NCBI GenBank assembly: GCA_964640155.1
Contig: CAZXEQ010000002.1
Span: 1 to 32,000 of the forward strand
Origin: an uncultured bacterium
GTDB lineage: Bacteria; Auribacterota; JACPWU01
Length of the DNA: 32,000 nucleotides
Direction: 5' to 3'
Shown here: piece by piece, positions 5,484 to 32,000 of the stretch
Layout of the letters: each line of letters opens with the position of its first letter
How positions within the stretch are numbered: the stretch's first letter is position 1
Translations under genes and position numbers: made by a program
Notes under the pieces: generated by a model
The model's input: only the letters and a program-made list of their open reading frames with translations
Database searches by the model: none
Told to the model about the DNA's origin: nothing

Positions 5484-5903
5484 TTAAAAAGATGTGATTT
5501 TTGGATTGGGAATACTCGAAATCGGAGGATGATAGAGGATTTGAATCACGTTTCCATCTGGATCTTGGAAATAGAGGGAGCGAGCACCATCCCGATGAGT
5601 TTTAGGCTCTTTTGAAAGAGTAATCCCTTGTTCTTTCAGATATTGAGCCCATTGATCCACATCCTCTGGATTTTTAACCAAAATTCCAAAATGATCTAAA
5701 GGGCTTTCGTCCATTTTCAAAGAAGAAGATACTTGATGAAGAGCCAGATTATCTGAACCTGATGTTAAATAAAGATTATTTACGTCCGGTCGCCATTCAA
5801 TTTTAAAGCCAAGAATGTTCACATAGAAGTCTTCAGCTTTCTGAATATCTTTGACTTTTAAAGCAATATGTCTGATTCCTAAGTTTGGGGGTAAAGTTTT
5901 CAT
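5484..5903 (-). CDS. VOC (glyoxalase/bleomycin-resistance/dioxygenase) family protein
   Basis: 'IRHIALKVKDIQKAEDFYVNILGF', 'DHFGILV' and 'LYFQDPDGNVIQI' form the paired beta-alpha-beta-beta-beta metal-binding pattern. I prefer the ATG at 5903, which overlaps the upstream stop as ATGA, over the track start at 5930. Confidence 0.8.
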   Translation of the reverse strand: MKTLPPNLGIRHIALKVKDIQKAEDFYVNILGFKIEWRPDVNNLYLTSGSDNLALHQVSSSLKMDESPLDHFGILVKNPEDVDQWAQYLKEQGITLSKEPKTHRDGARSLYFQDPDGNVIQILYHPPISSIPNPKITSF

Positions 5904-10464: not shown

Positions 10465-10480
10465 AATTCTACATCATAAT
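10465..10480. repeat. Direct repeat copy 2 (AATTCTACATCATAAT), covering the last three codons and stop of the 1006-aa gene
   Basis: On the minus strand it reads ATT ATG ATG TAG AATT, which is ...I M M stop of the ORF 10469..13489. Confidence 0.9.
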
Positions 10481-13526: not shown

Positions 13527-14402
13527 TTAGATATAAATCAATGTCAAACAAATTACAAGCCACAAAAAAATATCTAGTTGAAGCGCAAAATCACAATATA
13601 AAACCTGCGTAGGATTATCCCCCATCTCTTTTTGATGAATCAGATAAAGATAACGGAAAATACCATAGATCACAAAAGGGACTGTAAAAATAAGTCGATC
13701 TGTTCCAAACCTCATCTGAACATCTCTAGAAACCGTGTAGAATGCGTACGTAACCACTGTCGCGCCTGTAATCACAGAAATCAAAGAGTCAATAAAGGTG
13801 ATACTATATTCTGAAAGTACGTGACGATGTTGTGATGCTACATGCTTTAAGATGACCATTTCTTGACGACGCTTACAAAGGGCCAAAAATAAGGCTAAGA
13901 GAAACGTGCAGAGCAAAAGCCAATTTGAAATATTCACATAAATCACAACACCTCCCGCAACAGCTCGTAACACAAAACCCATTGCAAGAAGCATCACATC
14001 TAATATCACAACACGTTTGAGACCAAAAGAATAAATCAATTGAATAAACCCATAACCAAGTAAAACAAACAAAGCACCTTTCCCAAGACCTAATCCCATA
14101 AGAAAAGAACCCATCAACAGAAGTCCCGAAAGAATACGTGCCGTTCTTTTAGAAACAGTTCCAGTAGCCAAAGGGCGAAAGCGTTTGGAAGGATGTTGTT
14201 GATCTTCTTTTAAATCCAAGAAATCATTCAAAATATAACAGGCACTGGATATCGCACAAAACGCAAAAAAAACAATGCAGACCCGAACAAAAGAAATTTG
14301 ATCAAAAAGCTGCTCTGAAAAAATTAATGCTGCAAAAACTAGCAGGTTTTTTATCCAGTGCTTAGGGCGTATGAGTTGAAACAAAGCTTTAAGATTCATC
14401 AT
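13527..14402 (-). CDS. UbiA-family polyprenyl-phosphate phosphoribosyltransferase (decaprenyl-phosphate 5-phosphoribosyltransferase/Rv3806c-like)
   Basis: The membrane protein has about 8-9 TM helices. It carries 'NDFLDLKEDQQHPSKRFRPLATG', which matches the NDxxDxxxD-x-HPxKxxRP[IL]AxG signature I recall for the DPPR-synthase subgroup. I prefer the ATG at 14402 (MMNLKALFQLIRPKHWIKN), which has AGGAAA 8 nt upstream. The track start at 14510 would overlap the upstream gene. Confidence 0.75.
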   Translation of the reverse strand: MMNLKALFQLIRPKHWIKNLLVFAALIFSEQLFDQISFVRVCIVFFAFCAISSACYILNDFLDLKEDQQHPSKRFRPLATGTVSKRTARILSGLLLMGSFLMGLGLGKGALFVLLGYGFIQLIYSFGLKRVVILDVMLLAMGFVLRAVAGGVVIYVNISNWLLLCTFLLALFLALCKRRQEMVILKHVASQHRHVLSEYSITFIDSLISVITGATVVTYAFYTVSRDVQMRFGTDRLIFTVPFVIYGIFRYLYLIHQKEMGDNPTQVLYCDFALQLDIFLWLVICLTLIYI

Positions 14403-14412
14403 CGCATGTTTC

Positions 14413-17352: not shown

Positions 17353-17373
17353 CCTGATATCCTTCAAGAAATA

Positions 17374-20300
17374 TTATTCTCTAATTTTGATGGAGCCAAT
17401 AAAAACACCTTTATGTTCTACTTTGAGAGAAGTATTCTTTATTTTTCGGCGTTTACCATTTTCTAAATTAAAAAGACCTAAGTAAATTTGATATTCTCCG
17501 GCAGGAGTATCTACTGGTATTTGAATAAATTCTTTCTGTCGAAAAACTTCTCCTTCCACGCAAGGCCATATATAAAGATGCCGATTCAAAAAACTGTGAT
17601 CTCCTTGAAATAATTTTCCTTGGCCCTTAACATGAACAAAAACAGCCATGTTATTTCCAGGATTTTCTTTAAGTCTCCAATAATACTGAATAGCAATTTT
17701 TTGACCTGCCTTGACACCTGTAACAGAAGCAGAAACAGGGTAAAGGGTGTACCCTAAAAACTCTATCCCCCTTTCAAATTCAACAAAAGCGGAATAATGC
17801 GGTTTTATCCGCTTTAAAAGGTGGCTTTCTTCTTCACGAGCTTCTTTTTCTTGCCCCCTTCTTTTTAAAACGTTTATTTTCCCTTCCCTGGCCTTCACTT
17901 GATTCGGATAACTTTTCAAAGCCTTTTGATAATATTTGAGAGCTTTCTCAAAATGTCCCTCTTCTTCAAATTTGCTTGCCTTCATTCTTAATTGCTCGCT
18001 ATAAGCCTTATTATTAACACCCACAACTCCCAGTCCCATCCAATACCAGCCTAAGTTTGATTTTAACTTTTCTTCATTTTCACTCCACTTTGGAAAATAA
18101 AATAAAACCCAACGAGAAAAATTTTTTCTTGCAAGATGAATCTCTTGCTTTTCAATTGTCTTTTCAAATTCATCTGCATCGGCATCTTCCAAAATAAAAC
18201 CTATCTTTGGACCCCATGTCACCAATCGACCTGGTAGACGAACAGTATCTTTTTTATCGGTAAGACTAAAAGGTTCTATTGTTTGAATGGTTCCATTACT
18301 TATCTTTCTAATCTGAGAACTCATCCAGCGATCAGCATAAACTTTTTCTAATTTTAAAGCTTTCACAGTTGAAAAAAGTTCTTGTTCCCCCGAGGCAGCA
18401 AAACTTTCTTCCTTTATCTGCTCATAAAAATATACTTCGCTGATACGCCAGTCCAAACGACTTGAAGAATCATGCTGTACAACACGCACAAATCTGGCTT
18501 CAACAGGCCCTAGACGAAGCTCCTGACGATAAGACCATTCCCAGGGATAAATTCTTGGTCCACTCCAGTAATAGAAATCACAAGGTTTGGGCTGAAGAAC
18601 TTGCGTCCATTGATGTCCATCCAAACTTACTTCTACACTTAAATGGGCAGAAAAATAAGGATGCAATTCTCCCCGATTCCATAACCTGAGCATACCCAAA
18701 GAACAGGGTCTACCTAAATCAAACTGAATCCACATCCCCACTTGTCTAGCAATGACACTGCTCCAACTCGATTCCATATTACGATCCAAAACCTTTTTTG
18801 CTTGTCTAGATTCATGAGAAGAAGCCGTCTTAATCTTCTCAGGTGATATCTGACGATACTGAGCCTGAGGCTCTCGAAAATTATAATAGACATGGAATCG
18901 ACCCTCCTGATAACTTTGACACTGTCCCCCAATCATCCCAAAAATATTCTCAAAAACACCGGATCTATTTTCAATGAAAGCAGGATAAGGACTTTCATCT
19001 AAAAGAAGTTCGTAAGGTCGATACCTCTCTTGAGTAGGTGTCGCGCAAATCACTTCTTCTTTCGCCATAAATGTAATATCTGCAGCCCCAGAAGAAGCAT
19101 CAAATCGATAATCCATATACGCATGCTGAATCCCGTGCTTTTTTAGAAAATCGATAAGCTTTAGCTTTTCCACAGCTTCTGCTTGATAACCAGGAACTTC
19201 CTTAGATAACCAATCCCAAACAAAAAAACTTTGCCCAGCGCAATAAAACAAGGCCAATGCAACCGTTAACCATCTCCAATGCTTACGTACTTGCCATACA
19301 GCATAACCAAACACAATAGGGACAAGAGAATAAAGAGCAATCACATAGCGAGGTCTAAAACGTCGAATGGCATCATGGCTAGAACAACATACGACAACAA
19401 TTCCTAAGAGGAGAAACATCAAAATCCCACGAGCATGGCTCAATGGCAATATTTTTTTGCGAAGTCCGGCCGGTAAAAATGGGAGATCTTTTAAAAAAGA
19501 ATAAAAAAGATAAAAAAAATCTTTCATATTTGAAGACAAGAAGCGTAAAAAAATATACACGTAAAATAAAGCAATCGCTATAAAAGCCCACATTCCAAAG
19601 TGCTTATACTTGGGAATATCTAAAAGCTCTGGCCCTGTTGCTAATAATAAGTTTTTAAAACCTACAGGGAAATAGACAAAAGAAAATTTGCCTCCCATTC
19701 CTAAAACACTAGAATAAGGATCCATGGCATAATAAATAAAATAAGGAGCTCCTCCGATAAAAAAAGCAGGTAAACTCAAGAGAATTCCCCATTTCACCGC
19801 TTCCCAACGTAATCTGAAGAACATGAAACCCGCAATACCCAAAAGATAATAAATCATCATCGGGCTCACCCACCATCCCAGCCCACCAAAAAACCCTAAC
19901 ACAAAATATAGAAATCTTCGTACCTTCATTGAAGTGGAGAGAGTAAGTCTAATCGCAAGCCAAATAATCAAACTTCCCAACACCGGGGTTTCCAAATAAT
20001 GCGTATGTGGAACTACGCTCAATTGAGTTAAATAAACTGGTGCAAACACGCACCAAAGAAGTGCTACCAGTGCAACACCATCATTAAAAAGATCTCTGGC
20101 AATGAGAAAAGTCAAAATACAAAAAAAAGCAAACAGAAAAAGAGGGGCAACACGCATCGCCCACGGAGTGACGCCAAAAATCCAGAAGGCAACCCCATGA
20201 AGCATCGCCTCTAGCCCCCCAAACCAATTCTGCCCCCAAAAGAAAAATGGAAACTCTCCCAACTCCAATGCATGCTTTGACATTAACCCAATAATGCCTA

Positions 20301-20448
20301 AGTTATTGACAACGCATGTGTGTGCTAAATAAGTACTATCGGGACCTAATAAAGAAATAAAAAATCTAATGCTGACTGCAATGATCAGAAAGAGAAAGAA
20401 AAAGAGAAGAGTAAGCGGCTTTTCAAATTTTAAAGATAATATTTTCAT
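17374..20448 (-). CDS. GT-C membrane glycosyltransferase with internal discoidin domain - paralogue 3
   Basis: The architecture matches the other two ('GEFPFFFWGQNWFGGLEA', 'VPHTHYLETPVLGSLIIW', 'VLDRNMESSWSS', 'LGMLRLWN', 'YWSGPRIYPWEW', 'LRLGPVEARFVRV'). The discoidin block lies at about nt 18420-18800. I prefer the ATG at 20448 (MKILSLKFEKPL...), because the track start at 20526 would overlap the upstream gene by 59 nt. Confidence 0.75.
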   Translation of the reverse strand: MKILSLKFEKPLTLLFFFLFLIIAVSIRFFISLLGPDSTYLAHTCVVNNLGIIGLMSKHALELGEFPFFFWGQNWFGGLEAMLHGVAFWIFGVTPWAMRVAPLFLFAFFCILTFLIARDLFNDGVALVALLWCVFAPVYLTQLSVVPHTHYLETPVLGSLIIWLAIRLTLSTSMKVRRFLYFVLGFFGGLGWWVSPMMIYYLLGIAGFMFFRLRWEAVKWGILLSLPAFFIGGAPYFIYYAMDPYSSVLGMGGKFSFVYFPVGFKNLLLATGPELLDIPKYKHFGMWAFIAIALFYVYIFLRFLSSNMKDFFYLFYSFLKDLPFLPAGLRKKILPLSHARGILMFLLLGIVVVCCSSHDAIRRFRPRYVIALYSLVPIVFGYAVWQVRKHWRWLTVALALFYCAGQSFFVWDWLSKEVPGYQAEAVEKLKLIDFLKKHGIQHAYMDYRFDASSGAADITFMAKEEVICATPTQERYRPYELLLDESPYPAFIENRSGVFENIFGMIGGQCQSYQEGRFHVYYNFREPQAQYRQISPEKIKTASSHESRQAKKVLDRNMESSWSSVIARQVGMWIQFDLGRPCSLGMLRLWNRGELHPYFSAHLSVEVSLDGHQWTQVLQPKPCDFYYWSGPRIYPWEWSYRQELRLGPVEARFVRVVQHDSSSRLDWRISEVYFYEQIKEESFAASGEQELFSTVKALKLEKVYADRWMSSQIRKISNGTIQTIEPFSLTDKKDTVRLPGRLVTWGPKIGFILEDADADEFEKTIEKQEIHLARKNFSRWVLFYFPKWSENEEKLKSNLGWYWMGLGVVGVNNKAYSEQLRMKASKFEEEGHFEKALKYYQKALKSYPNQVKAREGKINVLKRRGQEKEAREEESHLLKRIKPHYSAFVEFERGIEFLGYTLYPVSASVTGVKAGQKIAIQYYWRLKENPGNNMAVFVHVKGQGKLFQGDHSFLNRHLYIWPCVEGEVFRQKEFIQIPVDTPAGEYQIYLGLFNLENGKRRKIKNTSLKVEHKGVFIGSIKIRE

Positions 20449-20467
20449 GATATATATTTCTTCTATC

Positions 20468-21451
20468 TCAAGAAATTTTAGAGAAAGTTTCTTTTTCTCT
20501 CCCCAAAAAATAGAATACTCCCCCAATTAAATTACCAATGGTTGTTGTTACTCTGCTAGCCAAAGCCAAAAGGAGGGCATCTGTTTTACTTAATCCTACC
20601 AGAGGGAAAAGAAGTACATAAAGACCCTCCAAGATACCAATAGCATCTACCGAAATAGGGATTCTAGCTATAAAATAAATAAAAGGGATCACCATAAAAT
20701 AATTTAAAGCAGAGCCTGGCAATTCAAAAGCTCTCGCCAAAACAAAAGTAGAAATAAAAGGAACAAACTGTTCAAAAAAAGAGAGAATAAAAAAAGCCAA
20801 CATGGCTTTGGGATAGTATCTAAATTGTTGATAGGAAGAAACAACATTGCCTAGCTTTTTAAAAAATTTTCCTTTAAATCTATCTGATTTTGAGCGAGGC
20901 AAATAATAAAGAGAGCCCACAAAAAAAACACTTACCGTGATTAAAAAGAATAAAATAAAATAAAAATATTTCCAATAAATCTCTGAGAAATTTTGTATAA
21001 GCAAAAATGAACAAATACACACCAACAACAACATCGCAAATAGGCCTAAGACTTTTTCAACAACAATACTGGCTGCAATTTTTTCTCTTTCTCCTTCTCG
21101 CACAGAGAAACTCATGAGACGCATCACATCGGACCCCACACTGGTAGGAAGTACCAGTCCCAATAAAGAAGCCATAAAATAAGAGCGTATACAACTCAAG
21201 AAAGAAGCCCGAATACTTTGAGCCCTGAGAAGGATCATCCATTTTGCTCCCATCCAGATGCGATCGATAAGAACAATTGTTATGGCAAGTAGTATAAAAC
21301 TTAGATGAGCTCGAGATAAAACACGAGAAAACTCTTGATAATCAACAAGCGTCAAAAGGTATATGAGAAGGCAAAGCCCAACAGCCCAACGGAAGATGGA
21401 GGATCTATGAATTGACATGGGATATAGGATATAGTTTTTGATGTCAAGCAT
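20468..21451 (-). CDS. UPF0104/LPG-synthase-TM (MprF flippase-domain-like) membrane protein
   Basis: The 327-aa protein has about 8 TM helices. 'LRAQSIRASFLSCIRSYFMASLLGLVLPTSVGSDVMRL' resembles the family's conserved 'lP...G.d..R' loop. An alternative start exists at 21418 (MSIHRS...). Confidence 0.6.
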   Translation of the reverse strand: MLDIKNYILYPMSIHRSSIFRWAVGLCLLIYLLTLVDYQEFSRVLSRAHLSFILLAITIVLIDRIWMGAKWMILLRAQSIRASFLSCIRSYFMASLLGLVLPTSVGSDVMRLMSFSVREGEREKIAASIVVEKVLGLFAMLLLVCICSFLLIQNFSEIYWKYFYFILFFLITVSVFFVGSLYYLPRSKSDRFKGKFFKKLGNVVSSYQQFRYYPKAMLAFFILSFFEQFVPFISTFVLARAFELPGSALNYFMVIPFIYFIARIPISVDAIGILEGLYVLLFPLVGLSKTDALLLALASRVTTTIGNLIGGVFYFLGREKETFSKIS

Positions 21452-21528: not shown

Positions 21529-22221
21529 TCAATTATCTATTTCCACCCACTGAACCGCATGACGTACCAGTTCAGTCGCATTTTCTAATTTCATTTTCTG
21601 TTTGATATGTTCTCGATAGGTTTCAACTGTTTTTATGCTCAGATGCAATTCTTTCGCAATCTGTCGCGTGCCACAGCCTTTCCCAATCAATTGAAACACT
21701 TCTAACTCTCGATCACTTAAAAGATCCAGAGGAGAAGTTCCTTTTTCAGAACCTCCATCCACACATTTTTCGAGCATCCTTGCTGCAATCTTTTCGCTGA
21801 CGTAAATTTCGCCTTTCAAAACTTTACGAATAGCAATTAAAACTTTTCCTGTTGCTTCTTGCTTCATAATATAGCCCCTCGCTCCCGCTCTCAGCACACG
21901 CTCTGCATAGAGAGACTCATCATGCATCGAAAGCACAAGAATAGGTAACTTTACATACCGTGTTTTAATGTTTTTAATCAACTCAATCCCATTCATGCCT
22001 TTCAAAGAAATATCCACAATCACAACAGAAGGCTTTAACTTTTCAATAGCATCCAAGCCCTGATAAGCGTCTTCCACGCTCCCACAAACCGTAAGATCCT
22101 CTTCCTGATTAATAAGTTGAGAAATGCCTTCTCTTAGAATAGGATGATCATCTACAATCAAAACTTTGGCAATCAAACTCATTTTAGATCTTTCTTCTTT
22201 ATTCTGTTTAATGGTTTTCAT
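21529..22221 (-). CDS. Response regulator, NarL/FixJ family (REC + LuxR-type HTH)
   Basis: 'VLIVDDHPILREG', 'VVIVDISLKGMNGIE' and 'ILVLSMHDE' form the receiver domain. 'LSDRELEVFQLIGKGCGTRQIAKELHLSIKTVETYREHIKQKM' is the LuxR-type HTH. The ATG overlaps the kinase stop as ATGA. Confidence 0.9.
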   Translation of the reverse strand: MKTIKQNKEERSKMSLIAKVLIVDDHPILREGISQLINQEEDLTVCGSVEDAYQGLDAIEKLKPSVVIVDISLKGMNGIELIKNIKTRYVKLPILVLSMHDESLYAERVLRAGARGYIMKQEATGKVLIAIRKVLKGEIYVSEKIAARMLEKCVDGGSEKGTSPLDLLSDRELEVFQLIGKGCGTRQIAKELHLSIKTVETYREHIKQKMKLENATELVRHAVQWVEIDN

Positions 22222-23453
22222 TTTCCATTTTTCCTTTTAATCAACGCAAGAGAATTAGAAAAACCACATCTTACTGTTGTCCCTCTTTCTTCATCTCGTT
22301 CTACATTTAAAGAGGCATTAATCATCTCTGCACGATAACTCATAATACGAAGTCCCATCCCCTTACTTTTTTTTATTTTTGATGGAATTCCAATGCCTTC
22401 ATCCTTAATTTCTAGAACGATTTTGTCTGCATGGCGAAGTAGCCGAATATAAATATGTTTTGTCCCACTATGTTTTACCGCATTATTAACAGCCTCTTGT
22501 GCAATCCGGTACAAATGAGTTGCCATCACATGATCATGGATTAAAATTGGCTGATCACAATTAAAATGGCAAGAAACATCAAATATTTTTTCTGTATTAG
22601 AAGCCAACTCTTGAAGTGCAGACATCAATCCATTAGACTCTAACTCCACAGGATAAAGTCCTCTTGCTAAACCTTTCGTTTCAGCAATGGTCTGATTCAC
22701 CAGTTCAACAATTTTTTTCACCTGGGCGACTTCAGAAATTGATTTAACAGACAATTTTTGTTCTAAAACCTTTGCTAAAAAAGCGATTCCCGTTAATTCC
22801 TGAGACAAACCATCATGTAAATCTTGACCAATTCGCCTCTGTTCCATTCCACTGATATCTAATATTTCTTTTTCTAGTCGTTTACGATCTTTAATGACTT
22901 TCTCAAGCTCTTTATTTGCTGCTTTAAGTTCAAAAGTCCGTTCTTCAACTCGCTTTTCCAGTTCATCATGGGCTTTTTTTAACTCTTCTTCCGCCTCTTT
23001 CAGTTTCGTAATATCATTGTTGATTTCAAGAAAGGCAATGGGTCTGCCCTTTTCATCTCGTTGCAATGTCCAACGACTTGAAACAATCACTTTTGATCCA
23101 TCTTTCTTTTTATGAAGAAGCTCTCCTTCCCAATATCCTGTTCTTAAGGCTGTTTTAAGAACCTCTTTCAAAGGTTCCGGGAACATTGTTTTCAAAAAAG
23201 TGTGGACATGTTTTCCAAGGGCTTCTTCTTTACTCCATCCATAAAGCCGAACAGCTCCTTGATTCCAGTAAATGATTTTGTCTTTGAGATCACGAATCAT
23301 GATGGTATCATCCGCAAAATCTATCATCTGGACATGTTTTCGAAGAGCATCTTCAATTTTTTTACGCTCAGAAAATTCTCGTTTAATCGCTCTTCGAACG
23401 GACAAAGGGACATCTTTTCTATCTAAATATTTTTCCAAGATATCCGTTTTCAA
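22218..23453 (-). CDS. Cytoplasmic PAS-domain sensor histidine kinase (HisKA_3/NarX-DegS type)
   Basis: There are no TM helices. The PAS domain reads 'DTIMIRDLKDKIIYWNQGAVRLYGWSKEEALGK', followed by a coiled coil. The H-box is 'IGQDLHDGLSQELTG', the N-box 'EAVNNAVKHSG', and the G-boxes 'IKDEGIGI' and 'GMGLRIM'. The start is TTG at 23453. Confidence 0.9.
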   Translation of the reverse strand: MKTDILEKYLDRKDVPLSVRRAIKREFSERKKIEDALRKHVQMIDFADDTIMIRDLKDKIIYWNQGAVRLYGWSKEEALGKHVHTFLKTMFPEPLKEVLKTALRTGYWEGELLHKKKDGSKVIVSSRWTLQRDEKGRPIAFLEINNDITKLKEAEEELKKAHDELEKRVEERTFELKAANKELEKVIKDRKRLEKEILDISGMEQRRIGQDLHDGLSQELTGIAFLAKVLEQKLSVKSISEVAQVKKIVELVNQTIAETKGLARGLYPVELESNGLMSALQELASNTEKIFDVSCHFNCDQPILIHDHVMATHLYRIAQEAVNNAVKHSGTKHIYIRLLRHADKIVLEIKDEGIGIPSKIKKSKGMGLRIMSYRAEMINASLNVERDEERGTTVRCGFSNSLALIKRKNGK

Positions 23454-23509: not shown

Positions 23510-24238
23510 CTAAATCTGTTTGATAACTCTTGCAGGAACTCCGACTGCAATTGACTTTGCGGCAATAGGCTCTGTAACAATAGCCCCGGCACCAATGACA
23601 GATCCTTCTCCAATTGAGGCCCCATCCATGACAACAACTTTTGCTCCCAACCAACAATTACTTCCAATTAAAAGAGGGCCTTTAGAAGTGGCTCCCGTTT
23701 GATCAGCAAACTTTATCTCAGAACGATAATCATAATTTCCCCCACTCATCAGACAACAATCCGCTGCGAGCATTGTCCCAGCACCTATCCTAAGTTCATT
23801 AGATGAGAAAATAAGTGTCCGATGCCCTACATTCACACGATCTTCTAAAAATAAATTTCCGCCCTTACAATAAACAAGAGAATTCCTTCCGATATAAACA
23901 CCTTTCCCCATTTCAATTCCAATATTGTCACTGCCTTTGGCATCTAATAAACAAAAGTCATCGATCAACGTATCGTCCCCAATTTTAATTTTTTGAGGAT
24001 GACGAAAAGTAATATGATGTCCAAAAATAACACCTTTCCCAACTTTTCCTAAAATGAAAGGATAAGTCCATTTTCTTAAAAAAATGCCTAACGCCCCTGG
24101 AATAGATCCAAAAAATAAAACGATCAACTCAAATTTAATCAAAAACCAAAGACTGGGATTTCCAATGACAAGTTCTTGATATTTTTTTAAAGAAGAACTT
24201 TTTTGTTTCTGTGATTTTTGAATCTTGAATGTGCTCAT
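23510..24238 (-). CDS. Hexapeptide-repeat (left-handed beta-helix) acyl/acetyltransferase with N-terminal membrane anchor (WcaF/WbbJ-like)
   Basis: An N-terminal hydrophobic segment is present ('LWFLIKFELIVLFFGSIPGALGIFL'). Tandem [LIV]-G-x-x-x-x hexapeptides follow ('IGDDTLIDDFCLLD', 'IGRNSLVY', 'IGSNCWLGAKVVVMDGASIGEGSVIGAGAIV'). Confidence 0.8.
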   Translation of the reverse strand: MSTFKIQKSQKQKSSSLKKYQELVIGNPSLWFLIKFELIVLFFGSIPGALGIFLRKWTYPFILGKVGKGVIFGHHITFRHPQKIKIGDDTLIDDFCLLDAKGSDNIGIEMGKGVYIGRNSLVYCKGGNLFLEDRVNVGHRTLIFSSNELRIGAGTMLAADCCLMSGGNYDYRSEIKFADQTGATSKGPLLIGSNCWLGAKVVVMDGASIGEGSVIGAGAIVTEPIAAKSIAVGVPARVIKQI

Positions 24239-24273
24239 AGAAATATGTGGTTCGATAAATTAAAACTAATTTT

Positions 24274-26163
24274 TTATTTCAAAACAAAAAGCTTATGCCA
24301 CAAAGCAAGATTCATTAAGGCCCAAAGAATATGATTATGATTATGGGTTCTGGCCAGATGTTGTTCAATCAGAAGACGAATATAATCAACCTTAAGGGAT
24401 TCTCGAATCAAAGGAGATTCATTCAATAATTCGATCATGTAACTTTTTAGTTCTTGCCGAAGCCAGTTCTTGATTGGGAAACTATATCCTTGTTTCCCTC
24501 GCTCACAAATATTGGGAGGAAGAATTCCATTTAAAGAATCTCTAAAAATCGCTTTGGTTCTAAACCCTTTGAGTTTCAGCGAACTTGGAATCGTTGCACA
24601 AAATTCTATAAACTCATAATCTAAAAAGGGGACACGTACCTCTAAAGCGGTTGCCATGCTCATTTTGTCTACTTTCATTAAAACGCTATCAGGCATGGTA
24701 AATCTTAAGTCGATATAAATCTCTTGGTCCAATCGATTCTTAGATGAACAATTTTGAAGTACTTTTTCAATAAGCCCAAATGGATTTGGATTAACCTGAT
24801 TTAAAACCTCATCCGAGAATAAAAGATGATTCTTGGTGGGATTTAAAAAATACTGCCATCTCATATGATGCCCCGATTGAGACAGATTAGAACCGTCCAT
24901 AAAACGTCGAATAACGTTAAAAAGACCTTTTTTCTGAGATTGATCTGGTAATTTCTGAATCAACGGATTTAAAATATATTGTCTGATGGGAGCAGGAATT
25001 TTTTGAAACATTTGATCAAATTTACTGGCCTTAAATCGGTCATATCCCACAAAAACTTCATCTCCACCTTCCCCACTGAGACAAACAGTTACCTTCTCCT
25101 TAGCTTTTTTGCAAATGAGCATAAAAGGAATAGTCGAAAGATCTGTCATGGGCTCGTCTAAATGCCAAACTGCTTTTTCAAAAAGAGGAACGCTCAAGGG
25201 CTCAATGATAATTTCTGTATGTTCTGTTTTAAATTGTTTTGCGATCTGACGTGCATAATCTAATTCACTGAAGGATGGATCTTCATACCCTAGAGAAAAG
25301 GTCTTCACAGGTTCTTTCATGTGACGTGTCATTAAGGCAACCACTGAACTTGAATCCAAACCTCCTGACAAAAACACCCCTAAGGGGACATCACTGATCA
25401 ATCTTTTTCTTACTGACTCGCTCAGCCGGTCAATGATTTCGTTTTGAATTTTCTTTTCATCTTTACCGGAGAGTTCTTTTTCAGGATTAAACTGAACATC
25501 CCAATACCGCCCAATCTGAATCTGCTTATTTTTAAAAATGAGATAATGACTGGGAGGAAGTTTATAAATATCCCTGAACATCGTTTGTGTTGCAGGAACA
25601 AATTCATACCCTAAATAATCATAAATGGCCTTGGGATTAACTTCTCGAGAAATCGAGGGATCTTTAAGAATGGCCTTAATCTCAGAAGCAAATATAAATT
25701 TCCCATCCTTAAAATAATAGTAAAGAGGTTTTACTCCTAGCCGATCACGCGCAATAAAGAGTTCTTTATTTTGAATGTCCCAAAGAGCAATTGCAAACAT
25801 TCCATTGAAATGGTGTATGCAATCCTTTCCATACTCTGCATAAGCATGAAGAATCACTTCTGTATCACATGAACTTGTAAAGACATGCCCCTTACTTTCT
25901 AATAAACGGCGAACTTCCTTGAAATTATAAATTTCTCCGTTAAAAACTACCCAAAGAGGATGTGCGCATTTGGCACAAGAGATATTCGACATAGGCTGGC
26001 GCCCATGCTCACTTAAATCCAGAATGCTTAAGCGTTGATGGGCAAGCGAAATCTCATCATCGACATAGACGCCCTGCTGATCAGGACCTCGATGAGCAAT
26101 TTCATGCCCCATGGCCTGTGCCAAAGCTTGATCTTTCCAGTTAAAACCCGCAATTCCACACAT
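24274..26163 (-). CDS. asnB: Asparagine synthase (glutamine-hydrolysing) family amidotransferase
   Basis: The Ntn nucleophile requires the start 'MCGIAGF' (ATG at 26163), not the track start at 26199. The PP-loop 'GVFLSGGLDSSSV' is present. The glutaminase and synthetase halves are collinear across 629 aa. Confidence 0.88.
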   Translation of the reverse strand: MCGIAGFNWKDQALAQAMGHEIAHRGPDQQGVYVDDEISLAHQRLSILDLSEHGRQPMSNISCAKCAHPLWVVFNGEIYNFKEVRRLLESKGHVFTSSCDTEVILHAYAEYGKDCIHHFNGMFAIALWDIQNKELFIARDRLGVKPLYYYFKDGKFIFASEIKAILKDPSISREVNPKAIYDYLGYEFVPATQTMFRDIYKLPPSHYLIFKNKQIQIGRYWDVQFNPEKELSGKDEKKIQNEIIDRLSESVRKRLISDVPLGVFLSGGLDSSSVVALMTRHMKEPVKTFSLGYEDPSFSELDYARQIAKQFKTEHTEIIIEPLSVPLFEKAVWHLDEPMTDLSTIPFMLICKKAKEKVTVCLSGEGGDEVFVGYDRFKASKFDQMFQKIPAPIRQYILNPLIQKLPDQSQKKGLFNVIRRFMDGSNLSQSGHHMRWQYFLNPTKNHLLFSDEVLNQVNPNPFGLIEKVLQNCSSKNRLDQEIYIDLRFTMPDSVLMKVDKMSMATALEVRVPFLDYEFIEFCATIPSSLKLKGFRTKAIFRDSLNGILPPNICERGKQGYSFPIKNWLRQELKSYMIELLNESPLIRESLKVDYIRLLIEQHLARTHNHNHILWALMNLALWHKLFVLK

Positions 26164-26235
26164 GGGCGATATGATAGCAATTGCCCTTATGGGAATCAAG
26201 CTTTCAAGGGTAAATCCCTTAATACTTAAAGAGAT

Positions 26236-27291
26236 TTAGCAACAGGTTTTCCGACCTGCCATCGTAAAGCAATTGAATCGTGTCCCAAATAAGAACCATA
26301 TCATTTGAGACATGACTCTGGAGAACACATTTGGACGCTTAAAAATATGACGAGCCCCATTCACCTCCTGCTTAACAACACGTGATGAGATTTTATTCAT
26401 CAGGGCTGATGTCCACCGAAAGATGGGAAATCCCGAAAAGGTATTTTTAAATTTATGATACTCTGGCAAAGAAAAAGCATAGAAGTAATCAGATAAACGT
26501 AAAGGGGCAAATGATCCCATGTATTCGATATGATTCTGATCAAACCACTTTAAAACTTCTCCTCCTGTATGTAAGCTTTCGTGAGGGAAACCAAAAATAT
26601 CATAACTGATCGCTTCATAATTACTCTCATGATACCTCTTATTCAGAGAATACATGGTGAGAGGGAAAAGGATCCTTCCTATCTTTGCTCTTTTCTCAAT
26701 ATTGTCCCCACCTAACCACTTACAAATGGTTTGCTTCATGCGAAGACGAATTCTACTATAGGTATTGTACAAGCTCACAACGACAATTCCGTCCGGTTTT
26801 GTAACCCGACAAAGATGCTGAAAACCCTTATACGGATTTCCGGTATGATGCAAAACTCCCACAGAGTAGGCATAGTCAAAAGAGTTATCTGGAAAATCTA
26901 ATTCCAAAATATCTTTTTTAATAAATTGAACGTTTTTTAACCCCGAAGCCTCTTTCTTTTGATTTGCCAAAGCCAAAGATCCATCTGAAAGATCTACCCC
27001 AATTACTTCTTTAGCTCCATTGGCAGCATACCAAAGAGCATATTCTCCTGTTCCACAACCTAATTCTAAAACTCTTTTTCCCTGAAAATCTTCCTTTTTG
27101 ATCCCCAACATTCTCAAACGCCAACCCATTTCTTCATCTGCTTCCCTTGTGCTTGGCCATGGATGCTTAGAATACATGCCCACAACTCTTTTCTGTATTT
27201 CTTTAATCTCTTCAGGTTTTGCTTGCTTCTCGCCTAAAAGTGCTTCCATCTTTTCTAAACTCCTTCTTATAATCAGGTGATTGAATATCAA
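26236..27291 (-). CDS. Class I SAM-dependent methyltransferase with C-terminal extension
   Basis: Motif I is 'RVLELGCGTGEYAL', followed by 'VIGVDLS', 'FDYAYSVGVLHH' and 'KPDGIVVVS'. The start is uncertain (27291 or the ATG at 27249). Confidence 0.8.
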   Translation of the reverse strand: MIFNHLIIRRSLEKMEALLGEKQAKPEEIKEIQKRVVGMYSKHPWPSTREADEEMGWRLRMLGIKKEDFQGKRVLELGCGTGEYALWYAANGAKEVIGVDLSDGSLALANQKKEASGLKNVQFIKKDILELDFPDNSFDYAYSVGVLHHTGNPYKGFQHLCRVTKPDGIVVVSLYNTYSRIRLRMKQTICKWLGGDNIEKRAKIGRILFPLTMYSLNKRYHESNYEAISYDIFGFPHESLHTGGEVLKWFDQNHIEYMGSFAPLRLSDYFYAFSLPEYHKFKNTFSGFPIFRWTSALMNKISSRVVKQEVNGARHIFKRPNVFSRVMSQMIWFLFGTRFNCFTMAGRKTCC

Positions 27292-27436: not shown

Positions 27437-30316
27437 TTATCCTTTAGAAACTAAATTTGAAAAATATTCATCCAGAAAAACTAGTCTTTTTTTAATCCAT
27501 TCCCTTTTTTGAGTAATTTCTCTTTCCCTTGTAATACCAGGAGGTAAAGGCCATAACTCAAAATTTCTTTTTACTCGATATTTTATTTTGTTTTCTATGT
27601 CATCTATTTGTTTCATTAAAGATTTTTCAGAAAGAATATCTTTTCTTAACTCTTTCCATCGTTCACAAAGAGCTTTTTTGTAAAAAGGGAGTTTCATGAG
27701 TCGATTAAATAAATGATTAGTCCAAATCTGATCAATGGGGCCATCGAGACTACGATCATAATCCCAGGCAATGATAAAAAATTTCTCATTTGGCCCACTA
27801 TTTCTAGCAATAAAAAGATTATGCCCTTCTCCTCCATCCTCCTGATTTATCAAAGTTGTCAAAATCTGAAAATGCATCACATTTTCTACATCTAGCACTT
27901 CTTTAGCTCTTCTCTCAAAAACAGCATCTGAAGATTGTCCTAAAAATGAAATTAACTCATAATAAGGGGCCCAATATTCACCATGTTCAAGATGAGGGTA
28001 TTGTTGCAAATAGTAATCTTGAGAAAAACGCTCAAAGTTTGCACCATTCACCTCAGCTTTATAAAGCACGCTGTGATTTTTTTCACCTTTTTGATATTTC
28101 CTTAAACCGAGCATTTCGGCGCTAACATCTTCCGAAAATTCATAAATCCCACGAAATTCTCCGTTAATAAAAAACTCTGTAAAGTCATGTTTAGGAGCAG
28201 ATTTAAAATGACTCGATTTAGAAATCAGTCTGGAAACATCATAAGCAAACTTATTTTTTATAAAAGAGATATCATAATAACTTGACATAAGAATTAAACT
28301 TGAGAGGGGATGAAAGTCTAAAAAAGCATGGTTTCCCAATCGAATCTTATAAGATTTTTTGGGGAAACCTAATGCAGAATTACCTTGAAGACGAATTTTC
28401 GCTGGAGTTTTTTTGCTTTTTATATTTTTGTTTGCATCTATAAATTCTACAAGGCATGGAGAATATATATATCTACCTGCTCTGCGATAATTCCATACCG
28501 CCAAAACATTCATTTTTAAAATAACAGGCATCACCGTAAAGTGAAATATCTTTTGGGTTTGATAATCTCCTTTAGCAAATGACACCTCTACTTCTACCGT
28601 TTTTGGCTCCTCTTCGTTGAGACGATTTATTTTACCCTCATGACTGATGAATTCTTCTTTTTTGGATCTCCAATTTATTCTCACTCCATCTATTTCTTTT
28701 ACTGAAAAATCTAAATTCCATAACACGCATTCCCTTCCAGGATTCTCCCCCAAAACCATCTCCTCTTTAAAATATTCTCTCACCTTCTCTACTATTTTTT
28801 TATCCTCTTTTTCATATTCTTCTAAATTCATCTTTCTGATTCTTTTTCTATCCTGCTTTATTCCGTACAAAATTTCTCGACTTCCCATAGGGGCTGTATG
28901 ATCTGACATCAATAGTTTGCCATATCTTTTCCTGAGCTCATCATATTCTCTTAATACATCTGTCTTACTGATGGGAAGCTTTTTCAAGAACTCTTCTATC
29001 TGCCAAGCCTCATGTACCTGCCCTTCATAGGCAAAAAATCCTGCATCCTCATAATAATAGAGCCCTTGATACTCACGGTTGATCCATACAACACCTAAGC
29101 CTCCTTGCGAACCTAAACAATGGTATTTCTTTTCTAAGTATTTTTTGAAGAGGGCCCTCAAAAGTCCATTCTCCTCAGGGGGAACAAATATGATTTTATT
29201 CATACCCTGATACTGACCTTCCTTTCCTAATTCTATACTAAAGGTCTTTTTCCCATATCGACTTAAACGCCCAGCATCTCCACATAATTCCATTTGCGCT
29301 TGTTCTAGCACGCCTCCCACTTCTATTTCTATTTTTCTTGTTTTTGATATTTCCTTTGGAACAATCCCATGTTTGAGACTAAGATAATGATACCGATTGA
29401 ATGCTTTTTTATCTTTTTTGCTCAAATAGAGATGAAACTCAGGCAAATCTGCCTTTAAAACCCTGCCTCTGCCATAATAGGGATTTAAAAGATCCAAACT
29501 TTTTATAATTCTTTGTAATCCCTTTCTCACTTCCTCCATTATTTTCTTAAGTAGGACTCGCCCTTTGTTTATCCTGTACGGATAAGCTTCTTTTGCTTGG
29601 CTCTCTTTTCTTATTTCTTCTTCCCCCATGACATAATTTCTTATCATTACTTCATCTAATATGTAGTTTAGAACACCCATCCCTTTGTACTGACCCAATA
29701 GCAATTTTTCTGGACGATGAGAGATGGAAATAACTTTTTCTCTATCCATGAGAACACCATTCTCATACACGCATGCTTGCCGAGATTGAAGAGAAAAAGT
29801 TAAAGCGATATGAACAAATTTTCCATATTGTTTAAATGGATAGGAGAGAATTTTGCTGGAGGTTTTAGCTTCAATCATTCTAAAATGAAGCTGGTCTTTT
29901 TCTAACCAAATAAAATTGACACGTCCTGTGTGATTTTTAAGGATGTATTGACAATCCTCTTGACTTCTATCAATCTTTATCCAAAAAGAAATAGTATATG
30001 CTTCCTTAAGCTGTCTAAAGTCAGAATCAATATACAAAGAATTATGAGGCCGCCCATGAAACCATCTTCCTTTTCCATACTTACCATTGACAAGCGTTGT
30101 TCCAGCATTGATCGCTTTCTTACAACTGACTTGATTCACAGGAACAGATTCATCCAAGGACCAATATCCCAAAACTCCACGAGAGATTAAATCCTTTTGA
30201 TTTTCTAACTCAATATCACTCAGACGAAGGGCAAGATTTTCTACTAGAAGAATATCCGCTTGATAAAAACAGACGGCCGCAAGAGCAATCACCCCCAATA
30301 GTTTGATTCGACTCAA
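27437..30316 (-). CDS. Exported LamG-like + CotH kinase-family protein (partial N-lobe-like CotH segment plus one complete CotH domain)
   Basis: A signal anchor is present ('IKLLGVIALAAVCFY'). The LamG/ConA-like block runs 'LVNGKYGKGRWFHG...YTISFWIKI...FVHIALTF...VYENGVL' (about nt 29611-30139). A CotH-like segment reads 'GKKTFSIELGKEG...VWINREYQGLYYYED' (about nt 28996-29449). The full CotH domain reads 'IRLQGNSALGFPKKSYKIRLG...FINGEFRGIYEFSED...HNLFIARN...IIAWDYDRSL...REWIKKRLVFLDEYF' (about nt 27440-28430). The start is TTG at 30316, overlapping the upstream stop. Confidence 0.75.
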   Translation of the reverse strand: MSRIKLLGVIALAAVCFYQADILLVENLALRLSDIELENQKDLISRGVLGYWSLDESVPVNQVSCKKAINAGTTLVNGKYGKGRWFHGRPHNSLYIDSDFRQLKEAYTISFWIKIDRSQEDCQYILKNHTGRVNFIWLEKDQLHFRMIEAKTSSKILSYPFKQYGKFVHIALTFSLQSRQACVYENGVLMDREKVISISHRPEKLLLGQYKGMGVLNYILDEVMIRNYVMGEEEIRKESQAKEAYPYRINKGRVLLKKIMEEVRKGLQRIIKSLDLLNPYYGRGRVLKADLPEFHLYLSKKDKKAFNRYHYLSLKHGIVPKEISKTRKIEIEVGGVLEQAQMELCGDAGRLSRYGKKTFSIELGKEGQYQGMNKIIFVPPEENGLLRALFKKYLEKKYHCLGSQGGLGVVWINREYQGLYYYEDAGFFAYEGQVHEAWQIEEFLKKLPISKTDVLREYDELRKRYGKLLMSDHTAPMGSREILYGIKQDRKRIRKMNLEEYEKEDKKIVEKVREYFKEEMVLGENPGRECVLWNLDFSVKEIDGVRINWRSKKEEFISHEGKINRLNEEEPKTVEVEVSFAKGDYQTQKIFHFTVMPVILKMNVLAVWNYRRAGRYIYSPCLVEFIDANKNIKSKKTPAKIRLQGNSALGFPKKSYKIRLGNHAFLDFHPLSSLILMSSYYDISFIKNKFAYDVSRLISKSSHFKSAPKHDFTEFFINGEFRGIYEFSEDVSAEMLGLRKYQKGEKNHSVLYKAEVNGANFERFSQDYYLQQYPHLEHGEYWAPYYELISFLGQSSDAVFERRAKEVLDVENVMHFQILTTLINQEDGGEGHNLFIARNSGPNEKFFIIAWDYDRSLDGPIDQIWTNHLFNRLMKLPFYKKALCERWKELRKDILSEKSLMKQIDDIENKIKYRVKRNFELWPLPPGITREREITQKREWIKKRLVFLDEYFSNLVSKG

Positions 30317-31005
30317 CGAATTCCCCCGGGGCGATTAAAAAAGATATGGATAGATTGACTTTCAGATAGAGATTTTATTTCAGACTGAACTTCTTCTACA
30401 GGTTTTTTTAAACCCGAAAATGAAAAATGAATCGAGGCTATCGCGTCTCGACTCGACGCACTCTCTAATACATTTCTAGAGGTATGTTCTTTCAGATAAG
30501 CGCAAACTTGCTTCAATTTTTCTGCCGCCTTTTCTTGAGTCATTGTCAAAATCAACATCCCATCTCTTCCTCGATGTTTCAGCAATCTTTTTCCTCGCAA
30601 AGCAAATAAGGTTACGATCGCAACCAAATACAGCACCATTAATAATTGAAAATTAAAAGTTGCGCAAGTAATTGATGAAGCAATTAAAAGCATGATAAAA
30701 CCAACTTCTTCTGGTTCTCGAATAGGAGTTCTAAACCTCACAATAGACAAGGCTCCTAATAAGCCAAGGGACAGAGGCAGCGACATTTGTACCCCCAAAA
30801 ATAAGGTTGTAATAGAGATCCCTAGCAATGGGAAGGCACGATGAACTTGACTCCCAGTTCCTCTATTTTCATAAAAATAAGTATAAAGGAGACTTGCGAC
30901 CAGGGCCGACACAAGAGACACTACGAGGGCTAGCACAAAACTACTAGGATCTATTCTGTTTGCTGCTTCTCGACTTAATTCTAAAGTTTTAAATACATTA
31001 TTCAT
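30313..31005 (-). CDS. DUF4956-like membrane protein
   Basis: The 230-aa protein has about 4 TM helices. The motif 'LGLLGALSIVRFRTPIREPEEVGFIMLLIA' matches the 'LSIVRFRT' signature I recall for DUF4956. The C-terminal half is soluble. AAAGG lies upstream of the ATG at 31005. Confidence 0.65.
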   Translation of the reverse strand: MNNVFKTLELSREAANRIDPSSFVLALVVSLVSALVASLLYTYFYENRGTGSQVHRAFPLLGISITTLFLGVQMSLPLSLGLLGALSIVRFRTPIREPEEVGFIMLLIASSITCATFNFQLLMVLYLVAIVTLFALRGKRLLKHRGRDGMLILTMTQEKAAEKLKQVCAYLKEHTSRNVLESASSRDAIASIHFSFSGLKKPVEEVQSEIKSLSESQSIHIFFNRPGGIR

Positions 31006-31033
31006 ACCTTTGTTCCTTTTTTATTAACATATT

Positions 31034-32000
31034 TCATTGTATCTGAGTTTGTCCAATTTGTGCAAAATACTGATCTAAAAAAACAAGTCTTTTCTTAATC
31101 CATTCTCTCATTTTATTCACAAAATCTTCTCGCGTTTCTGTCGTGGGAGAAGGCCATATTTCAAAATTTCTTTTGACACGATACTTCACCTTTTCATCAA
31201 TTTCATCCATCCTCTTCATTAAGGCGTCTTCAGAAAGAATATCTTTTCTTAACTCCTGCCATCGCTTATATAGATTTTGATTATAACCTGGGAGCACCTT
31301 CATCAATCTATTAAACAAATCATTGGTAACAATCCGGGTTTCCTCTCTCCCAAAACTTTTGTCATAGTCCCATGGCACCAGAAAAAATAAATCCTCAGTC
31401 CCATTGTTCCTCGCAATGAAAAGGTTATGATTGGGACCATCCATTTGATTTACAAAATTAAGCAATATTTGAAAATCCATCACATTATTGATATCCATAA
31501 CTTGATGGACCTTTTTTTTGAATTCCTCGTCCGAAGAGTTTCCTAAAAAAAGAATCAATTCTTCATAAGGAGCCCAATATTCTCCAAACTTTAAATGAGG
31601 TTCCTTTTGCACATAAGCTTCTTTTGCTAGACGGGAAAAACTAGCCGTTCTATTTTCTGCTTTATAAATAACACTGTGCCTGGCATCCCCTTCACGATAA
31701 GGTTCTAATTGCAGTAAATCTATTTCGATATCATTTTCAAACTCGTAAATCCCCTGGAATTCATGATCAATAAAAAGCTCTATAAGAGAGTGATGCGGAG
31801 CATATCGAGGATTCTGAATGGTAGAGAAACTCCTGAAAAGATCATAGGCCATTTGATTTCTCATAAAGGAAAGATCAATGTAACTCCCCATTAAAACCAA
31901 TTCATCCGCATGAGTCCCTAAAAGATCATGAAAGCGTTCCATACAAATTTTGTAAGATTTTTTAGGATAATTAAGCGCCGTATTACCATGGAGTTTGGTT
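31034..32000 (-). CDS. CotH kinase-family protein, 5'-truncated at the window edge (paralogue of the C-terminal half of 27437..30316)
   Basis: The reading frame stays open upstream of the track Met at 31942 up to the window end. That extension translates as '...TKLHGNTALNYPKKSYKIC', which aligns with 'IRLQGNSALGFPKKSYKIRLG' of the neighbouring CotH. The downstream blocks are collinear ('FIDHEFQGIYEFEND', 'HNLFIARNNG', 'LVPWDYDKSFG', 'REWIKKRLVFLDQYF'). Confidence 0.75.
   Translation of the reverse strand, partial: TKLHGNTALNYPKKSYKICMERFHDLLGTHADELVLMGSYIDLSFMRNQMAYDLFRSFSTIQNPRYAPHHSLIELFIDHEFQGIYEFENDIEIDLLQLEPYREGDARHSVIYKAENRTASFSRLAKEAYVQKEPHLKFGEYWAPYEELILFLGNSSDEEFKKKVHQVMDINNVMDFQILLNFVNQMDGPNHNLFIARNNGTEDLFFLVPWDYDKSFGREETRIVTNDLFNRLMKVLPGYNQNLYKRWQELRKDILSEDALMKRMDEIDEKVKYRVKRNFEIWPSPTTETREDFVNKMREWIKKRLVFLDQYFAQIGQTQIQ

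Follow-up and report, generated by a model that had tools for sequence, protein, structure and literature searches.

A VTC-CotH-DUF4956-CotH gene block in an Auribacterota glycan locus and its relation to a widespread bacterial gene cassette

Introduction

Streptococci, clostridia and bifidobacteria have an accessory set of genes contiguous with their pel operons, made up of cotH, DUF4956, DUF4832 and a gene for a polyphosphate polymerase (Whitfield et al. 2020; PMC7112168), and the same families are present in the NELoc-2 locus of C. perfringens. In S. intermedius, deletion of either the CotH gene SIR_1594 or the four-helix/ACT-domain gene SIR_1592 lowers Pel and aggregation, and the authors of that study proposed a link to phosphate metabolism (PMC12345266). 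Here we describe a related block of genes at the right-hand end of a 32,000-nucleotide stretch of DNA from an uncultured bacterium assigned to the Auribacterota (assembly GCA_964640155.1, contig CAZXEQ010000002.1, positions 1 to 32,000 of the forward strand), which as a whole is referred to as the window. Within the window two CotH genes, CotH-A and CotH-B, flank a gene for a small DUF4956 membrane protein, and a VTC gene is located just beyond the window edge. The initial annotation of the window treated the joint role of these families as a blank, but the two streptococcal deletions already provide a phenotype. We found no biochemical study of a bacterial VTC-DUF4956-CotH trio in the literature.

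The pel accessory set (SIR_1592-1594) and the window have in common an exported CotH protein, a VTC-type protein, a protein that combines four helices with an ACT domain, and adjacent polysaccharide genes. The window differs in its host, which belongs to the Planctomycetes-Verrucomicrobia-Chlamydiae (PVC) group (Auribacterota-like), and in the absence of both pel genes and a DUF4832 hydrolase. Moreover, its CotH proteins contain Laminin_G_3 and aBig_2 in place of the FN3 of SIR_1594, and its CotH gene is duplicated, giving the order VTC-CotH-DUF4956-CotH. The CotH protein of Bacillus (structure 5JD9) has the same kinase-like domain, with the DGxxHN and WDYD aspartate motifs, but it is a protein of about 360 aa that lacks an anchor, uses ATP, and acts within the mother cell on the substrates CotB and CotG, whereas the CotH proteins of the window are about 960 aa long, membrane-anchored and equipped with lectin and Ig-like domains, in a lineage where spore coat proteins are not to be expected.

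Comparisons can also be drawn with systems outside the bacterial CotH loci. The yeast VTC complex, in which the Vtc4 tunnel is joined to a channel of Vtc1/2/3/4, is a coupled polymerase and translocase; the partner encoded next to CotH-A likewise has a Vtc4-like tunnel domain, and the bacterial VTC protein invariably has a small polytopic membrane protein as its partner, as expected for a synthase coupled to a channel. Unlike the yeast protein, it comprises only the tunnel domain, lacking SPX and any fused membrane domain; no relationship is detectable between DUF4956 and the membrane domain of yeast VTC, and the kinase-like third partner has no yeast counterpart. The MgtC/SapB proteins resemble DUF4956 in layout, with helices in the membrane at the N-terminus and an ACT-like domain in the cytoplasm at the C-terminus, but there is no sequence relationship between the two, and DUF4956 possesses an invariant RFRTP..PEE loop of its own. 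Finally, kinase-fold enzymes with glycan targets outside the cytosol are known from the animal secretory pathway, namely Fam20B, which acts on xylose, and POMK, which acts on mannose. These offer an analogy only: they belong to families unrelated to CotH, and ATP is imported into the secretory pathway.

Gene organization at the edge of the window

The block is encoded on the minus strand (Table 1), and Pfam profiles assign all three of its genes within the window to the families that had been proposed from the sequence. CotH-B matches the CotH family (PF08757) at aa 641-948 with an E-value of 5.7e-45 and 154.7 bits, and CotH-A does so with an E-value of 4.7e-49 and 168.1 bits, against a cut-off of 23.8; NCBIfam contains no model for CotH, DUF4956 or VTC. 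The LSIVRFRT motif reported for DUF4956 is present at aa 86-93, and the TTG start of CotH-B overlaps the DUF4956 stop, as had been read from the sequence: DUF4956 ends in ...ATT CGT TGA, CotH-B begins TTG AGT CGA, and the 4 nt held in common are TTGA. An identical overlap between DUF4956 and CotH is found in three relatives (L010, L092 and L093). The frame of CotH-A remains open through base 32000 (TKLHGNTALNYPKKSYKIC...), and the gene is therefore cut by the window edge; the list of open reading frames gave it 302 aa. Scans for promoters and terminators yielded no signal above that of shuffled controls, and Rfam gave no match.

The full-length CotH-A corresponds to protein P0003, which was called at 930 aa and has the Laminin_G_3, aBig_2 and CotH domains arranged as in CotH-B; its complete length, which includes the anchor, is about 963 aa. 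The initial annotation noted collinear C-terminal halves in the two CotH proteins, and the motifs quoted for them are there, VKRNFELWP and REWIKKRLVFLDEYF in CotH-B and VKRNFEIWP and REWIKKRLVFLDQYF in CotH-A. The likeness is not confined to these halves, as the two proteins are 56% identical across their whole length (about 930 residues), which is far beyond chance.

The missing member of the block was located by way of the closest relative, the Candidatus Auribacterota metagenome-assembled genome JAYRIK010000103.1 (loci L003 and L011). Locus L003 shows the order DUF2079, VTC, CotH, DUF4956, methyltransferase, AsnB-type amidotransferase and hexapeptide acetyltransferase, with a PAS histidine kinase and a response regulator further on; its nucleotide identity to the window is 80-88% over the common genes, and exactly the CotH-B segment is absent from it. 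Used as a query, the L003 VTC protein led to P0128 (81% identity), which is listed on a contig of 501,885 bp; the contig listed for CotH-A and CotH-B has the same length. Two contigs from run SRR8893623 bear on the junction. L001 matches the window at 100% identity along 4177 nt and reaches 438 nt further, and L091 carries P0128, with the VTC stop 12 nt ahead of the TTG that opens MKRVWIFAVIILGCIFFYEGD, a sequence whose homologue is the signal anchor of P0002, an orthologue of CotH-A; the roughly 10 codons between the end of L091 and the called start of P0003 were bridged by inference. The suggestion that a VTC gene could lie beyond the right edge was thus borne out. From the P0128 contig, the L091 junction and the L001 identity, there is very little doubt that the operon consists of VTC, CotH-A, DUF4956 and CotH-B, followed by the methyltransferase and other downstream genes. 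The Logan short-read assemblies of this same strain break inside CotH-A (L091 at 10694-10764, L001 at 1-438), presumably because of the paralogy of CotH-A and CotH-B.

Table 1. Coordinates of features in the window and of selected features in related loci.
Feature	Position	Strand	Evidence or remark
CotH-B	27437-30316	minus	959 aa, TTG start
CotH-B signal anchor, aa 6-28	30233-30301	minus	predicted; R3 and K5 in front; hydropathy
CotH-B Laminin_G_3 (concanavalin-like lectin), aa 104-235	29612-30007	minus	Pfam, E 4.4e-11
CotH-B N-lobe-like segment, aa 353-432	29021-29260	minus	hhalign
CotH-B aBig_2, aa 530-596	28529-28729	minus	Pfam, E 1.8e-7
CotH-B kinase-like domain, aa 641-948	27473-28396	minus	Pfam, profile match to 5JD9
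CotH-B catalytic Asp827 codon	27836-27838	minus	EDGGEGHN, one-residue insertion after D827
CotH-B metal-binding Asp852 codon	27761-27763	minus	WDYD
DUF4956 membrane protein, 230 aa	30313-31005	minus	Pfam PF16316, 51.4 bits, cut-off 30.6
Spacer between CotH-A and DUF4956, 28 nt	31006-31033	minus	AAGGAA ribosome-binding-like motif ahead of ATG
CotH-A, C-terminal 321 codons	31034-32000 and on past the right edge	minus	open frame
CotH-A catalytic Asp codon	31439-31441	minus	QMDGPNHN
CotH-A metal-binding Asp codon	31367-31369	minus	WDYD
S-adenosylmethionine (SAM) methyltransferase	26236-27291	minus	Pfam
AsnB-type amidotransferase	24274-26199	minus	Pfam, NCBIfam
WcaF-like hexapeptide acetyltransferase	23510-24238	minus	Pfam, NCBIfam
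PAS / HisKA_3 histidine kinase	22218-23453	minus	Pfam
NarL/GerE response regulator	21529-22221	minus	Pfam
About 1000-aa paralogue	17374-20526	minus	F5/8 type C (discoidin) domain
About 1000-aa paralogue	14413-17367	minus	F5/8 type C (discoidin) domain
UbiA prenyltransferase	13527-14510
About 1000-aa paralogue	10469-13489	minus	F5/8 type C (discoidin) domain
DUF2079	window 5900-7393; L003 1323-3944; L007 14091-15443; L010 2170-4788
ATP-cone protein with partial NrdD-type match	2493-3944	plus	483 aa
Asn-type CotH in surveyed loci	L016, L017, L028, L035, L043, L049 (14108-17209), L052, L054, L055, L057, L060, L062, L063, L082

Conservation of the cassette

The survey began with a scan for DUF4956 in one genome per GTDB species and comprised 80 loci, the window's own genome not being among them; genes were called with hidden Markov models seeded from Pfam-annotated genes, and a Pfam check confirmed 40/40 of the VTC calls and 39/41 of the CotH calls. 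VTC adjoins DUF4956 in 79 of the 80 loci, the sole exception being cut by a contig end, and 72 loci contain the complete trio, with at least four of the CotH-less loci being truncated. The order VTC-DUF4956-CotH is found in 63 loci. Between neighbouring genes there is either an overlap or a very short gap. These counts agree with the CotH-DUF4956-VTC neighbourhood that the initial annotation had noted for other genomes, and show the link to be very strong. The loci belong to Verrucomicrobiota, Kiritimatiellia, Lentisphaerae, Auribacterota, Spirochaetes, Rokubacteria, Acidobacteria, Fibrobacteres, Gemmatimonadetes, Desulfobacterota and others, and represent at least 10 phyla. The DUF4956 family itself is large, with 3765 word-indexed homologues showing more than 50% identity across phyla and 3557 representative clusters at 50% identity, nearly all of them near 230 aa in length. 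A word-indexed search with CotH-B returned 6 proteins, a number that understates the family, as its architecture is common in the surveyed loci: among the Pfam-checked CotH proteins, 35 have Laminin_G_3 and 27 have aBig_2.

Outside the trio there is little that recurs. No Pfam family accounts for more than 4 of the 125 flanking genes examined in 56 loci, and for this reason the trio is regarded as a self-contained cassette; glycan genes, which were considered as general neighbours of the trio, were rejected as such on the same count. A glycan context is limited to certain clades, these being the window, its Chlamydiae-like relatives, Desulfonatronum and the Gram-positive pel loci.

The conserved unit is thus VTC-DUF4956-CotH, and CotH-DUF4956-CotH, the three-gene arrangement to which attention had been drawn at first, is a lineage-specific derivative of it. 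In the window the step from DUF4956 to CotH-B is canonical, including the 4-nt overlap, but CotH-A is placed between VTC and DUF4956, and when compared with the 80 loci the order VTC-CotH-DUF4956 is common only to the window and its sister genome. Accordingly, the block VTC-CotH-A-DUF4956-CotH-B is almost certainly a rearranged, CotH-duplicated version of the widespread VTC-DUF4956-CotH cassette.

Origin of the second CotH gene

A neighbour-joining tree unites CotH-A with the one CotH that the sister genome has and places CotH-B as sister to both, while the CotH proteins that occupy the canonical position in the next relatives (P0004 and L010) fall outside this group. This topology implies that the duplication is older than the split of the two Auribacterota genomes, and that CotH-B was later lost in the sister lineage. 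In view of the breaks seen in the Logan assemblies, the absence of CotH-B from the sister genome could be due to assembly collapse, though the flanks are contiguous there.

Two-CotH versions of the cassette have arisen independently elsewhere. Locus L049 contains VTC, DUF4956, CotH, a partial DUF4956 and a second CotH, and looks like the intermediate expected from tandem duplication of a DUF4956-CotH unit; one of its CotH proteins is canonical and the other is of the Asn type described below. Further examples are L067 and the cultured Desulfonatronum thiodismutans, in which the order is CotH-VTC-DUF4956-CotH. In the latter (L094, JPIK01000012.1, 4206-15647) these four genes are followed by genes for a LamG protein, a HAD hydrolase and UbiA, and are preceded by GT2/GtrA and GDSL genes; the UbiA, GDSL and GT2 families also occur elsewhere in the window.

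The CotH proteins

Neither the CotH domain nor VTC gave useful matches in the PDB when a single sequence served as the query, and profiles were used instead. A profile of the CotH subfamily matches the structure of B. cereus CotH (5JD9) with an E-value of 1.3e-19. Four residues, D827, N833, D852 and D854, are invariant in the subfamily and align with the DGFVHN and PWDYD motifs of 5JD9, where D827 and D852, like their equivalents in CotH-A, correspond to D224 and D247, 23 residues apart. In B. subtilis CotH, mutation of D228 or D251, which are also 23 residues apart, inactivates the kinase (Freitas et al. 2020; PMC7821199); these residue numbers are those of that paper and were mapped by spacing and motif rather than by direct alignment. 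Judged from these alignments, both paralogues of the window retain the catalytic and the metal-binding Asp, a check that had been recommended at the outset. Across 79 aligned family members the metal-binding Asp is 97% conserved.

The family also includes a subgroup, with members in the 14 loci listed in Table 1, in which Asn replaces the catalytic Asp (QN.N-GYPF) and a four-residue insertion brings in His-Asp or His-Glu. Such proteins may have either a relocated catalytic acid or the character of pseudokinases.

The N-terminus of CotH-B contains a hydrophobic segment with a Kyte-Doolittle mean of 2.19 (17 aa), homologous N-terminal anchors are seen in its relatives, and the N-terminus is strongly hydrophobic in 65 of the 80 survey CotH proteins. 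Most of CotH-B is accordingly predicted to be located outside the cytoplasm, and for both CotH-A and CotH-B an N-terminal helix is predicted to act as an anchor that leaves the lectin-like and kinase-like domains on the outer side. This hydropathy prediction fits the extracytoplasmic location proposed for the CotH proteins in the initial annotation. In the AlphaFold2 model of CotH-B the Laminin_G_3 region has a predicted local distance difference test score (pLDDT) of 70-90, and the aBig_2 domain has a profile match to the same domain in the arabinanase 5HO0. Between these two domains is a segment to which Pfam is blind; it resembles the N-lobe of the CotH domain in the same protein (77.5% probability in hhalign, E 1.9e-5) and is kept in 6/6 aligned proteins of the CotH-B family, and it is probably a degenerate internal half-duplication.

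The VTC and DUF4956 proteins

The VTC protein has about 226 aa and matches the Pfam VTC family with an E-value of 8.4e-23, and the family profile matches the yeast Vtc4 structure 3G3Q with an E-value of 1.2e-10. R63 and R65 (in RLRWY) and E187 and K189 (in an ExK motif) are invariant, and E4 and K6 of an N-terminal ExK motif are nearly so. Strongly hydrophobic segments are absent, the median hydropathy maximum of the survey proteins being 1.28. The bacterial VTC protein is therefore predicted to be soluble, and it keeps the residues of the Vtc4 polyphosphate-polymerase tunnel.

An AlphaFold2 model of DUF4956 (pLDDT 76.5), together with hydropathy, places four membrane helices at about aa 20-44, 54-86, 98-115 and 119-144, and the model ends in an ACT-like domain of beta-alpha-beta-beta-alpha-beta topology at aa 149-223. 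The basic RFRTP..PEE loop occupies aa 90-100, and its RFRTP part is invariant in 76 homologues. Given that the ACT-like domain and the strongly basic segment that follows helix 4 are placed in the cytoplasm, this loop would face the cytoplasm in the model as well. When the model was compared with the PDB by Foldseek, all 50 matches listed were ACT-like or ferredoxin-like and covered the C-terminal domain only; among them were two structures of the C-terminal domain of MgtC, 2LQJ (E 1.2e-3, target-normalised TM-score 0.61) and 7QA5 (E 7e-3). Membership of DUF4956 in the MgtC family at the sequence level was considered and rejected, as Pfam gave no MgtC match even with E-values up to 10 allowed, and the DUF4956 profile matched E. 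coli YhiD in hhalign with a probability of just 0.4% (E 0.14).

The surrounding glycan locus

In the initial annotation the CotH genes were seen as a module appended to a glycan locus. They are embedded in it instead, since glycan genes continue upstream of VTC, where L091 carries genes for an epimerase, methyltransferases and a GT4 glycosyltransferase. On the other side, the methyltransferase, AsnB-type amidotransferase and acetyltransferase genes (23510-27291) are codirectional downstream of CotH-B and syntenic with L003. The best NCBIfam match of the AsnB-type protein is to the amidotransferase of XrtA/PEP-CTERM systems (TIGR03108), at 574 bits under a cut-off of 817. It is the likeness to TIGR03108, along with that of the acetyltransferase to WcaF-type exopolysaccharide acetyltransferases, which points to an exopolysaccharide locus; the block sits inside an exopolysaccharide or glycoconjugate locus.

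Next to these genes are a PAS histidine kinase and a NarL-type response regulator. Such a pair is linked to the cassette also in L003 (14583-16495) and in L004 (7300-9211), where it is directly upstream of VTC, and it may be the regulator of the cassette in this clade. A DUF2079 membrane protein is encoded near the cassette in Auribacterota and Chlamydiae-like relatives, and accounts for 3 of the 125 flanking genes overall.

Further into the window there are three paralogous proteins of about 1000 aa that are 29-43% identical. Each has 7-8 membrane-helix-like segments in its first 400 or so aa and then an F5/8 type C domain, and from this layout they look like large proteins of the glycosyltransferase type that cross the membrane repeatedly and carry a lectin domain in the periplasm; the gene of a UbiA prenyltransferase is located between two of them. 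Near the left end, a protein with an ATP-cone has a partial match to an NrdD-type profile (profile positions 278-412 of 562) and is short for an anaerobic ribonucleotide reductase.

Mechanism and alternatives

Taken as a whole, our best explanation of the block is a tentative one, to which we would give somewhat less than an even chance. VTC would use ATP to produce polyphosphate, or another phosphoanhydride donor, at the membrane; DUF4956 would take this donor on its cytoplasmic RFRTP loop and move it across the inner membrane, a passage that a ligand bound by the ACT-like domain might control; and the periplasmic CotH enzymes, placed by their LamG domains, would use the donor to phosphorylate a surface glycan or an envelope protein. 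The acceptor here would most likely be the product of the surrounding locus, and the two CotH paralogues could serve different acceptor sites. The outward relay of a donor from VTC through DUF4956 to CotH is in itself possible but doubtful; it is favoured because of the three predicted compartments, the near-constant gene trio and the ATP-free periplasm. As there is no pool of ATP in the periplasm, an exported kinase must rely on a different donor. The full proposition, that the trio is a trans-membrane phosphorylation machine in which DUF4956 is a polyphosphate conduit and the exported CotH uses polyphosphate instead of ATP on surface glycans or proteins, is in our judgement unlikely.

A number of observations weigh against this explanation. 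The searchable literature holds no measured polyphosphate, transport or kinase activity for any bacterial member of the trio, and the sole characterised CotH enzymes use ATP and protein substrates within the mother cell. Triphosphate tunnel enzymes include hydrolases and cyclases, so that tunnel residues are no proof of a polymerase. DUF4956 shows no detectable similarity to the yeast VTC channel, and no chain of the yeast VTC complex (structures 7YTJ and 8I6V) was among the 50 Foldseek matches listed for it. The only candidate for a VTC-DUF4956 fusion, in L033, looks like a frameshift artefact, and no clean fusion was found. The CotH-B model, built from 6 sequences, has an overall pLDDT of 56 and is too poor for a fold search. 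In addition, the genes that flank the cassette vary, and a glycan substrate is thus not general.

The absence of ATP from the periplasm argues against the alternative in which the CotH proteins are ordinary ATP-dependent kinases, acting before export or on leaked ATP, while VTC and DUF4956 form a separate, MgtC-like pair for phosphate homeostasis or regulation that is merely co-transcribed with them. Near-obligate adjacency, with stop/start overlaps, in at least 10 phyla would be hard to explain without direct functional coupling, and at the sequence level DUF4956 does not match the MgtC family. Nevertheless, the characterised CotH enzymes are ATP-dependent Ser/Thr kinases, DUF4956 has the membrane-plus-ACT layout of MgtC and its C-terminal domain matches 2LQJ and 7QA5, and the phosphate-metabolism suggestion of the S. 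intermedius authors (PMC12345266) would agree with such a pair; this division of labour also strikes us as rather unlikely. One may further propose that polyphosphate is itself the product, exported by VTC and DUF4956 as an anionic component of the surface or matrix, and that CotH binds it, caps it or anchors it to the envelope or to a glycan. The lack of a conserved fourth gene would fit a product that needs only common metabolites, and the LamG and Ig-like domains suit a role in binding. Pel, whose loci adjoin the Gram-positive sets, is a cationic polymer, and the Asn-type CotH subgroup indicates that canonical catalysis is not universal. On the other hand, the window paralogues and most other members keep the full catalytic motifs, which speaks for chemistry and not binding alone, and there is no evidence of exported polyphosphate in any carrier of the cassette. 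We regard its export as the end in itself as distinctly improbable.

Finally, the CotH-DUF4956-CotH layout would be meaningless if one of the two CotH genes were a decaying duplicate or an artefact of assembly. The closest relative has a single CotH and lacks exactly the CotH-B segment, and short-read assemblies break at the paralogues, L091 stopping at the start of CotH-A. Yet both genes are intact, full-length frames with all the conserved motifs, an identity of 56% is that of old paralogues and not of a recent repeat or a collapse, independent Logan contigs match the CotH-A / DUF4956 / CotH-B junctions at 100%, and two CotH genes recur independently in L049, L067 and Desulfonatronum thiodismutans. 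There is accordingly only a very slight chance that the duplication is spurious.

Implications

What the window itself contributes is little more than a new lineage and the duplication of a kinase-like gene. The cassette had already been described beside pel loci. The importance of the locus derives from the cassette, which is widespread and strongly conserved, and which published genetics have tied to a biofilm polysaccharide in a pathogen. The cultured two-CotH carrier Desulfonatronum thiodismutans would be a practical organism for tests. The predicted three-compartment layout, encoded by genes that move as one unit, turns a vague association of gene families into a concrete model for extracytoplasmic phosphorylation and polyphosphate export, and, if this model were true, the trio would explain both how phosphorylation can take place in a compartment that is free of ATP and how polyphosphate reaches the cell surface.

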